DNA of 14,932 bases from a virus (IMGVR_UViG_2654587792_000025); one strand, 5' to 3'. Shown: positions 1,375-2,121, counted from the first letter of the stretch. Translations and numbers: made by a program. The notes: a model not told the origin generated them from the letters alone.

Positions 1375-1640
1375 AATTCGGCACTGCCAGTATTTATTAC
1401 TCAACAGTGCCAATCGCGACGGTTTAGTTTCTGCCAGGAAACGCACCGCTACTTGCACTTTTCGTTAGTGCCAGACGCTTTCGACTTCGCTCAATAGTAG
1501 AAGGCAAAATCTTTAAGTAGATGATGTTTCTGAGGACAGCACCTACTTTGTAATTTATACAATGTGATGTATGGAATCATTTGTTGTGAAAACAGGCACC
1601 AATGGCAACAGTGGTTAAACCTACACAACAATCCTGTCTT

Positions 1641-1762
1641 CACAACGTTGAGGCCACTACTCCGATTGAATGTTTGCCCAACATGTTACATATCAACGCT
1701 CGCCGGTATCTCTGTGAATAGAACCTTAGAATTGATAAAAATGTAATGGCCTCAACGTTGTG
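1641..1762. repeat. Perfect 15-bp inverted repeat (cacaacgttgaggcc at 1641-1655 / ggcctcaacgttgtg at 1748-1762) with a 92-nt spacer; core related to the 842-919 repeat
   Basis: Read directly from the sequence; it shares the core CACA(A/G)CGTTGAG with the inverted repeat next to tRNA-Ser. Confidence 0.8.
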
Positions 1763-1924
1763 TGCTGGCTAACCATACCAGCCGGGCTACGTCGCCGCTT
1801 TTTAACCCAGTATAAACGACATAATTGAACAAAATGACGTAACAGGATGGGCGGTCAGAGGCTAAGAATCCGGGAGTCATATGGAGTTGAAAATATACCG
1901 ACCGCCCATTCTGTTACTTCATCG

Positions 1925-1948
1925 GAGGGAACACTCATGTTCCCTCCT
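1925..1948. repeat. Perfect 10-bp stem hairpin (ggagggaaca-ctca-tgttccctcc) inside the ORF-poor structured region
   Basis: Read directly from the sequence. No U-tract follows on either strand, so it is not a classical terminator. Confidence 0.7.
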
Positions 1949-2121
1949 GCGTTCTGCAATCACACTCGCTCAGTGTGTCCCATTTCGGTAACGAGGCTGG
2001 AAACTGACCTCGCTGGTGTTTGGCTTATTAGGCTACTGCCAGATAGACTTCTTCGTTTGCACTTGTATTTAAGTTCAAACAGTCGCGTCTCAACGAAAAC
2101 AAAGTCATCTTATACATAAAA

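Follow-up and report, generated by a model that had tools for sequence, protein, structure and literature searches.

This locus raises the question of what occupies about 750 bp of apparently noncoding DNA (positions 1375 to 2121) in a 14,932-nucleotide stretch, here called the window, of the viral sequence IMGVR_UViG_2654587792_000025. The window is 97 to 99% identical to SSU5-like Escherichia coli phage-plasmids (phage Cyrano, CMS-2020a, and many plasmids of ∼110 kb), and public records carry no annotation over the region. ARAGORN placed genes for three transfer RNAs (tRNAs), tRNA-Asn(GTT) at 1300 to 1374, tRNA-Thr at 1222 to 1297, and tRNA-Ser at 922 to 1008, all on the minus strand, and every gene rightward of 2153 is on the minus strand too. 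On the transcribed strand, the region thus comes upstream of these tRNAs, and the features described below are on the minus strand unless stated otherwise. An earlier note, made from the sequence alone, had treated the region as a single structured block that could be either an RNA co-transcribed with the tRNAs or a DNA-level site. The structure was borne out, but that description missed the nature of the first 166 nt, which resemble the mRNA-like domain of transfer-messenger RNA (tmRNA) and contain a conserved tag frame.

A distant-similarity search revealed that window positions ∼1958 to 2112 resemble unannotated DNA of unrelated phages, and the alignment with these phages exposed GCAAACGAAGAAGTCTATCTGGCAGTAGCCTAA, which translates to ANEEVYLAVA followed by a stop codon. 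In the window, the frame (GCA AAC GAA GAA GTC TAT CTG GCA GTA GCC TAA) occupies 2028 to 2060 and is to be compared with ANDENYALAA, the tag of E. coli tmRNA. An IMG/VR anchor search that was blind to the tag yielded, among the matches listed, at least 26 distinct open reading frames (ORFs) encoding 14 peptides, all of the form A-[NK]-[DE]-[DENTA]-x-[YF]-L-A-[VA]-A. Many of the differences among them are synonymous (AAC/AAT, TAT/TAC, TTT/TTC, CAA/CAG, GCA/GCC/GCT, GTA/GTG, and GCC/GCT/GCG), and the stop codon, whether TAA, TAG, or TGA, is in frame every time among these matches. Even the resume codon, GCA in the window, is GCT in phage Maynard. The two other frames give unrelated peptides, conservative substitutions being found in the tag frame alone. 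The tag frame is under selection at the protein level. Lambdoid copies have UAG in frame eight codons before GCA, and reading the intervening sequence disclosed neither a canonical start codon nor a Shine-Dalgarno (SD) sequence, so that conventional initiation is not conserved. As in tmRNA's mRNA-like domain, an alanine resume codon without SD or AUG opens a short, hydrophobic-ended frame that is closed by an in-frame stop.

The RNA that carries this frame shares further traits with tmRNA (SsrA; RF00023, clan CL00001): an A-rich stretch upstream, AUA at positions −6 to −4 in most members, GCA as the resume codon, a frame of 10 codons of the form AN[DE][DEN]x[YF]LA[VA]A, a helix-5-type hairpin with the stop codon in its loop, and H-type pseudoknots thereafter. 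Since the MAFFT alignment of all groups was off by 2 nt in the PK2 pseudoknot of the SSU5-like copies, a covariance model (R1) was built from the 20 members of other groups only. It matched window positions 1935 to 2100 with 76.2 bits (E = 1.2e-15) over model positions 1 to 178 of 178, and the same model gave no match to E. coli ssrA. In these 20 members the proposed structure is 95% paired, compared with 37 to 45% when the pairing partners were slid. A covariance-model scan against Rfam, which the earlier note had proposed as a check, gave sub-threshold beta_tmRNA and tmRNA_permuted signals as the region's only hits, and both fell exactly on the tag frame.

From its 5' end, the RNA consists of a leader (2061 to 2100) with two segments antisense to host tmRNA, the tag frame, and a helix-5-like hairpin, CUGG...CCAG (2013 to 2042), whose outer CUGG/CCAG helix is invariant and whose inner helix covaries, the loop of the latter holding the stop codon. 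An H-type pseudoknot in the PK2 position follows (1978 to 2012), in which the loop UUCC of a CGAGG/CCUCG stem pairs with a downstream GGGA. Across the family, its first stem shows three compensatory pairs and its second stem two (AU:10/GC:10 and AU:15/GC:5) with 100% pairing, the pairing of the second stem in the window itself being read by eye. Next comes the hairpin CACACU-GAGCG-AGUGUG (1961 to 1977), with invariant G·U pairs besides two compensatory ones, which in most lineages is stem 1 of a further pseudoknot, PK3. As read from the sequences, lambdoid, Felix, and Vi1-like copies clearly have stem 2 of PK3; it is degenerate in SSU5-like ones and varies in length by lineage (GCCC/GGGC, GCCCUGA/UCAGGGC, or GGCGGGAG/CUCCCGCC). 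Like tmRNA, the RNA thus has its stop codon within the loop of helix 5 and pseudoknots after it, with covariation in helix 5, in both stems of PK2, and in stem 1 of PK3. The PK3 hairpin is followed by a variable GC-rich 10-bp hairpin (1924 to 1947) that is not followed by a U-run; it shows five compensatory pairs in an alignment of nine SSU5-like representatives, on which all SSU5-like covariation reported here is based, and is missing in one natural variant (L113). A role in 3'-end protection is possible for this hairpin. In the copies of Vi1-like and Serratia phages (L149 and L155, from Salmonella phage Maynard, and L078 and L091), we also observed a duplicated GUUUUCGUUUUCGUUG leader and a closing helix CAAACAG...CUGUUUG that surrounds the whole unit.

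By BLAST, 614 phage records carry the element (among them are Felixounavirus, Kuttervirus, Kolesnikvirus, N4-like phages, Klebsiella siphophages, and lambdoids), as do 773 plasmids, and the HK620 type alone was located in 135 E. coli chromosomes. Vi1-like, N4-like, lambdoid, SSU5-like, and Felix O1-like phages are thus all represented. Invariant and covarying elements are common to the window, HK620, and the Felix O1-like and Klebsiella phages. The element lies between pR'/qut and tQ in HK620, within the tRNA array in Felix O1-like phages, and beside tRNA-Ser in Klebsiella phage Carvaje, each time in the same orientation relative to the tRNAs. Essentially all of the matches listed have no specific feature annotated over them, and the listed E. 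coli matches are all unannotated.

The family lacks the other half of a tmRNA, the tRNA-like one, on which alanylation and delivery by SmpB and EF-Tu depend. To look for a hidden tRNA-like domain, we ran ARAGORN on the window plus 15 loci related to it, searched Rfam at permissive E-values, and applied a custom T-arm/acceptor scan. In the window, none of the three found such a domain, with its acceptor stem of 7 bp containing G3·U70, its T-arm, and its 3' CCA; the T-arm/acceptor scan of the whole 14.9 kb returned the three tRNAs and nothing more, and no acceptor piece lies upstream of the coding piece in the window, as it would in a two-piece tmRNA. ARAGORN likewise called no tmRNA in eight other members, among them SSU5, Cyrano, Carvaje, Michonne, Erwinia phage Tian, and Maynard. 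A promoter adjoins the conserved 5' end, GUUUUCG, in SSU5-like and Felix-like copies, and the next tRNA of Felix-like phages begins within about 50 nt after the element, which defines a minimal unit without room for a tRNA-like domain. Two candidate acceptor strands were rejected: GUUUUCG has no complementary acceptor strand nearby, and the lambdoid flanks AGUGCUCUU-UCCA and AAGAGCAUU are actually the 9- to 10-bp closing helix of neighboring modules, with G3-C70.

In phage Moogle, ARAGORN called a permuted "tmRNA*" with the tag ANDNVFLAVA, which explains why two genome announcements mention ssrA in Moogle and Felix O1. The tag is real, but the tRNA-like domain is probably an artifact, composed of two pseudo-tRNA halves with A3-U70 at a distance of 520 nt upstream, three tRNA genes and a promoter standing between them and the tag. 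The pseudo-tRNA itself (Moogle locus L153, 3110 to 3200, minus strand; also L004, L087, and L092) looks circularly permuted and is conserved in Felix O1-like phages. Its layout, on which the "tmRNA*" call is based, is a T-arm followed by ACCCUUC-G-CCA, 4 nt, and then GAAGGGU and a D-arm, and it may represent two decayed tandem tRNA copies.

In place of the first pseudoknot of tmRNA, the phage RNA has its leader, in which GUUUUCGU...GCGACU is invariant and antisense to host tmRNA around the resume codon. The GUUUUCG(U) motif is the reverse complement of the tmRNA codons GAC-GAA-AAC, and GCGACU complements AGUCGC, which spans the resume codon. In the window, GUUUUCGUUG (2100 to 2091) is complementary to tmRNA nt 95 to 104 and GCGACUGUUU (2086 to 2077) to nt 81 to 90. 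The longest complement, of 8 to 10 nt, always falls in tmRNA nt 96 to 106, and the flanks that extend it differ among lineages. When leaders were compared with reverse-complemented tmRNA by Smith-Waterman alignment, none of 2,000 shuffles reached the score of the lambdoid-A, lambdoid-B, L078-type, Felix, or L063 leader, and 7 of 2,000 reached that of HK620; the matches cover tmRNA nt 68 to 106 or 80 to 106. RNAduplex z-scores are uninformative here, as U-rich leaders are set against an A-rich region of tmRNA. In minimum-free-energy (MFE) dimer predictions, nt 1 to 35 of the lambdoid-A RNA paired with tmRNA nt 68 to 104 with a gain of −15.9 kcal/mol, and the pairing persisted in HK620 with a gain of −9.8 kcal/mol. 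The phage tag diverges from the host tag exactly in the targeted codons, so that the leader fits its own RNA less well than host tmRNA. Most of 118 sampled Enterobacterales and relatives, among them Enterobacter, Citrobacter, Serratia, Erwinia, Pectobacterium, Providencia, and Aeromonas, have an identical host target, ATAGTCGCAAACGACGAAAAC, and this invariance fits that of the leader. In some Yersinia species the tag region of tmRNA is different (ANDSQYESAALAA) and would not be matched by the leader.

A translated-looking tag, the absence of a tRNA-like domain, and a leader antisense to the host resume codon led us to propose docking of the RNA on host tmRNA, whose tag template it would block or replace. 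We regard this as the best overall explanation, with the chances of its being right or wrong about equal. The leader would hybridize with host tmRNA over its resume codon and initial codons, thereby masking the former, and the phage frame, whose AUA-NNN-GCA context is kept, would be substituted for that of the host, or at minimum host tagging would be inhibited. The tmRNA-like RNA would be freed from the tRNA precursor by processing at two long downstream stems, M2 and M3, which we take for RNase III-type sites because they are irregular helices of 20 to 24 bp. In its more specific form, the proposal envisages a trans-acting message cassette that re-programs trans-translation, such that the host tRNA-like domain would perform the rescue and trans-translating ribosomes would read the tag from the phage template (...YLAVA for ...YALAA); this form is tentative and well short of probable. 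tmRNA matters for lambda-immP22 hybrids and phage Mu. The terminal Ala-Ala is critical for ClpXP degrons (bioRxiv 10.1101/2024.01.29.576913), and a swapped tag ending in Val-Ala could thus alter proteolysis of rescued products. If the message-cassette form is true, the fate of rescued proteins would be changed during infection or plasmid carriage.

Several observations weigh against docking. In the window's own subgroup, the support for pairing is weak, and a duplex in vivo is suggested with caution. In the dimer prediction for the window, nt 1 to 20 still pair with tmRNA nt 86 to 104, with a gain of merely −4.6 kcal/mol, and in the Felix O1-like copy the pairing is lost. The SSU5-like subgroup taken alone has two 10-bp helices, each with a G·U pair and neither significant individually; for the window leader, RNAduplex gave z = −0.2 and Smith-Waterman alignment found an 8-mer only. 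The window leader can also pair over 8 bp with the start of its own tag. Such pairing was rejected as an explanation of the conserved 5' motif, as it requires a GAAGAA tag and lacks conservation. Although host-target invariance suits an invariant leader, it leaves no phage-host covariation that could be tested. The copy on plasmid pMT1 of Yersinia pestis, probably a recent acquisition, is not adapted to its host, and we know of no precedent for an mRNA-like domain acting in trans to a one-piece tmRNA.

Other explanations account for part of the same evidence. The RNA might act on host tmRNA solely as an antisense inhibitor or as a sponge, like AgvB/AsxR of prophages, with the frame and pseudoknots serving stability or contacts with tmRNA-associated proteins (S1, RNase R) rather than translation. 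Complementarity of the leader, lack of a tRNA-like domain, and the lambdoid late-leader position, where anti-sRNAs (anti-small RNAs) are encoded, all agree with such a role, but RNA stability alone predicts neither the synonymous changes nor the conservative substitutions in the tag frame nor the in-frame exchange of stop codons, and we consider it rather unlikely. A genuine two-piece (permuted) phage tmRNA, with its acceptor piece elsewhere in the genome, is improbable. Like the coding piece of the two-piece tmRNAs of alpha-proteobacteria and cyanobacteria (RF01849 and RF04321), the phage RNA is a separate message RNA that must pair with an aminoacylatable partner; unlike it, the phage RNA carries no 5' acceptor strand for pairing with an acceptor piece of the same gene and instead complements the mRNA-like domain of the host one-piece tmRNA. 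The ARAGORN call in Moogle, the two announcements, and the tRNA-like modules with T-arms ending in UCCA that stand beside the element in some lambdoid arrays speak for two pieces. Against them are the pseudo-tRNA nature of the Moogle halves, with A3-U70 rather than G3·U70 and with intervening genes and promoter, the lack of any call in Michonne or in Erwinia, Vi1-like, lambdoid, and SSU5-like members, the empty scan of the window, and the unpartnered GUUUUCG end.

It is unlikely, too, though slightly less so than two pieces, that the region is a leader or spacer for tRNA maturation whose likeness to tmRNA stems from a decaying captured ssrA fragment with no present role in rescue. Co-transcription with the tRNAs and long stems that suit RNase III would agree with this, as would the dispensability of M3 and of the variable hairpin in natural variants, but the tmRNA-like unit is the most conserved part of the region (kept in 57 of 57 SSU5-like loci of a pattern-selected set) and recurs in unrelated phage families with their own promoters, and it exhibits covariation and coding constraint. 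Least credible, and in our view highly improbable, is a DNA-level site (an origin, a pac/cos site, or a recombination site) or a set of small protein genes, for which the dense inverted repeats and a 90-amino-acid plus-strand ORF might be adduced. The minus-strand RNA (726 nt) folds at −255.5 kcal/mol, compared with −196.9 ± 6.2 kcal/mol for shuffled sequences (z = −9.5), and is 20 kcal/mol better than the plus strand (−235.4 kcal/mol; z = −6.1). Many conserved pairs are G·U pairs, which would become A·C in DNA or on the other strand and function on the minus-strand RNA only, arguing against a DNA cruciform, an origin, or a pac site. The element is also portable among the tRNA arrays and late-operon leaders of unrelated phages, and the origin or packaging signal suggested by the earlier note hence found no support. 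Its description of the region as ORF poor holds: no ORF of the region matches Pfam, and indels of 1 to 2 nt break the frames in related genomes.

In tmRNA terms, the phage RNA differs from SsrA in having no acceptor stem, G3·U70, T-arm, or CCA, in being only 166 to 190 nt long, in its antisense leader, and in a tag that ends in Val-Ala. Phage-encoded ssrA has been catalogued in mycobacteriophages, in Bacillus phage G, and, as a tRNA-like domain only, in DS6A, with no enterobacterial phages among them; the DS6A RNA is a retained half-molecule for which interference with host trans-translation was proposed (Hudson et al. 2014, PMC4131195). Those RNAs are either complete or the tRNA-like half, whereas the enterobacterial-phage family keeps the opposite half. 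The AgvB/AsxR and Pas/STnc100 small RNAs (sRNAs) of lambdoid prophages occupy the same late-leader or tRNA-array neighborhoods but differ in sequence and structure, have no tag frame, and target Hfq-dependent sRNAs or mRNAs rather than tmRNA. AgvB and AsxR act by base-pairing with host RNAs, and species 1 and 2 of the phage T4 tRNA cluster are small, stable, structured RNAs that are co-transcribed and co-processed with the phage tRNAs and are not known to resemble tmRNA. A literature search found the tag strings in no searchable paper and nothing on tmRNA-like RNAs, mimics, or decoys of these phages beyond the two genome announcements; the Pas/STnc100 papers do not mention the tmRNA-like element. 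The family is thus large and essentially uncharacterized, a tmRNA derivative with, possibly, a categorically new mode of action. Docking, if true, would be the first case in nature of a virus re-templating or silencing bacterial ribosome rescue by RNA-RNA pairing, and the message domain of tmRNA would work, or interfere, in trans. Whatever the mechanism, annotation pipelines have missed a widespread structured RNA family, including its copies on pMT1, on Klebsiella phage-plasmids, and in many E. coli prophages, and the result offers a concrete reason for such RNAs to travel with phage tRNA arrays.

Reading the sequence upstream of the leader, we recognized a sigma-70-type promoter at 2107 to 2135, with −35 TTTACT (2135 to 2130), a 17-nt spacer, and −10 TAAGAT (2112 to 2107), predicting transcription to start at the G at 2100. 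Its score in a promoter scan, 8/12, falls under the threshold of 9/12, but it is kept in all nine SSU5-like representatives, and Felix O1-like and Erwinia phages have equivalent promoters (TTGACA-17-TAAGAT/TATAGT/TAATCT) at an equal distance from the element. The first intrinsic terminator that a terminator scan detected downstream is at 765 to 746, beyond tRNA-Ser, so that the RNA units and tRNAs probably form a single transcript. Positions 2135 to 1375 are probably the 5' part of one transcription unit read toward the tRNA genes. The order is promoter, tmRNA-like RNA, modules M2 to M4, tRNA-Asn, tRNA-Thr, an STnc100-like sRNA module, tRNA-Ser, and terminator. The conserved promoter, the absence of an earlier terminator, and minus-strand G·U covariation support the suggestion, already made in the earlier note, of a structured RNA co-transcribed with the tRNAs. 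The terminator sequence (745 to 765; AAAGGGGCTTCGGCCCCTTTTTT) is strong and bidirectional looking and lies between a plus-strand ORF (127 to 741) and the minus-strand tRNA and noncoding RNA (ncRNA) unit.

A repeat search recovered all five stems that had been listed for the region. The 7-bp stem, at 1380 to 1386/1405 to 1411, encloses a loop of 18 nt. A 20-nt, 95% pair (1641 to 1660/1743 to 1762) has the 15-bp inverted repeat as its core, and a 23-nt, 91% pair (1834 to 1856/1900 to 1922) has the 10-bp inverted repeat. The 10-bp hairpin is at 1924 to 1933/1938 to 1947, one base from its reported position, and the cacact/agtgtg hairpin is the minus-strand hairpin at 1977 to 1961 described above. 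In the comparative alignment, four of the five are kept in SSU5-like phage-plasmids with compensatory or G·U changes, the exception being the stem at 1381 to 1412 beside tRNA-Asn; stems from ∼1580 to 1375 are not conserved across the nine representatives.

Downstream of the tmRNA-like RNA, M2 (1834 to 1922) is an irregular long stem of 23/24 bp with a 43-nt insert, built around the 10-bp repeat; it is 100% paired, with seven GC-to-GU or GU-to-GC changes. A small conserved hairpin, GCUGG...CCAGC (1764 to 1782; 100% paired, one compensatory pair), separates it from M3 (1641 to 1762), a 20-bp stem CACAACGUUGAGGCC.../...GGCCUCAACGUUGUG that contains the 15-bp repeat and has an 82-nt insert. M3 is 96.8% paired with four compensatory pairs and is deleted in a natural variant (L090). 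M4 (1583 to 1646), found by the repeat search, is a 14-bp stem GUUGUGAAGACAGG/CCUGUUUUCACAAC whose covariation was read by eye, the MAFFT alignment being poor here; it has GUUGUG in common with M3 and the shape of an STnc100/PasD-type closing helix. M2 to M4 look like processing or sRNA-type modules. The remaining spacer (1375 to 1582) is poorly conserved in the alignment and contains lineage-specific hairpins, including the 1380 to 1411 stem, and a single conserved one, GCACU-AACGAAA-AGUGC, at about 1470 to 1454. Y. pestis pMT1 (L276, 380 to 960, minus strand) retains the tmRNA-like unit, with the tag ANEDTYLAVA, together with the promoter, M2, and M3; its array ends at M3/M4 next to caf1R of the F1 capsule locus, and the tRNAs are thus missing.

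Sequence reading and Rfam placed two more RNA modules between tRNA-Thr and tRNA-Ser (1009 to 1221). The first is closed by the stem ACACAAC-AGGA-AAGAGCAUU...AGUGCUCUU-UUC-GUUGUG, and the second is a candidate STnc100/PasD-family element: positions 970 to 1154 matched STnc100 (RF02076) over its full length with 44.8 bits (E = 1e-8), slightly below the curated gathering score of 47. A connection of STnc100 with prophage PasD sRNAs has recently been made (bioRxiv 10.64898/2026.05.13.724894). The CACAAC/GUUGUG closing motif is common to M3, M4, the modules of lambdoid arrays, and the STnc100/PasD-like element. The flanks of four lambdoid loci (L009, L020, L038, and L111) and of Carvaje (L005) contain repeated cassettes of the form CACAAC-AGGU-AAGAGCAUU ... 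AGUGCUCUU-UCC(A/G)-GUUGUGG, and some of their inserts, with a perfect T-arm (GGGTTCGAATCCC) and a UCCA end, are tRNA-like mini-helices that ARAGORN does not call. In Michonne (L004, 4276 to 5111), the gene for a DUF2828 "RNA-binding protein" adjoins the tRNA/ncRNA array; this protein is possibly Ro/TROVE related, which would hint at a Ro/Y-RNA-type link for some of the tRNA-like modules. Finally, window positions 1013 to 1378, with tRNA-Asn and tRNA-Thr, share ∼90% identity with the tRNA region found in phages P1, P7, and D6, which indicates a tRNA cassette common to P1-like and SSU5-like phage-plasmids, with the tmRNA-like unit lying outside the P1 match.

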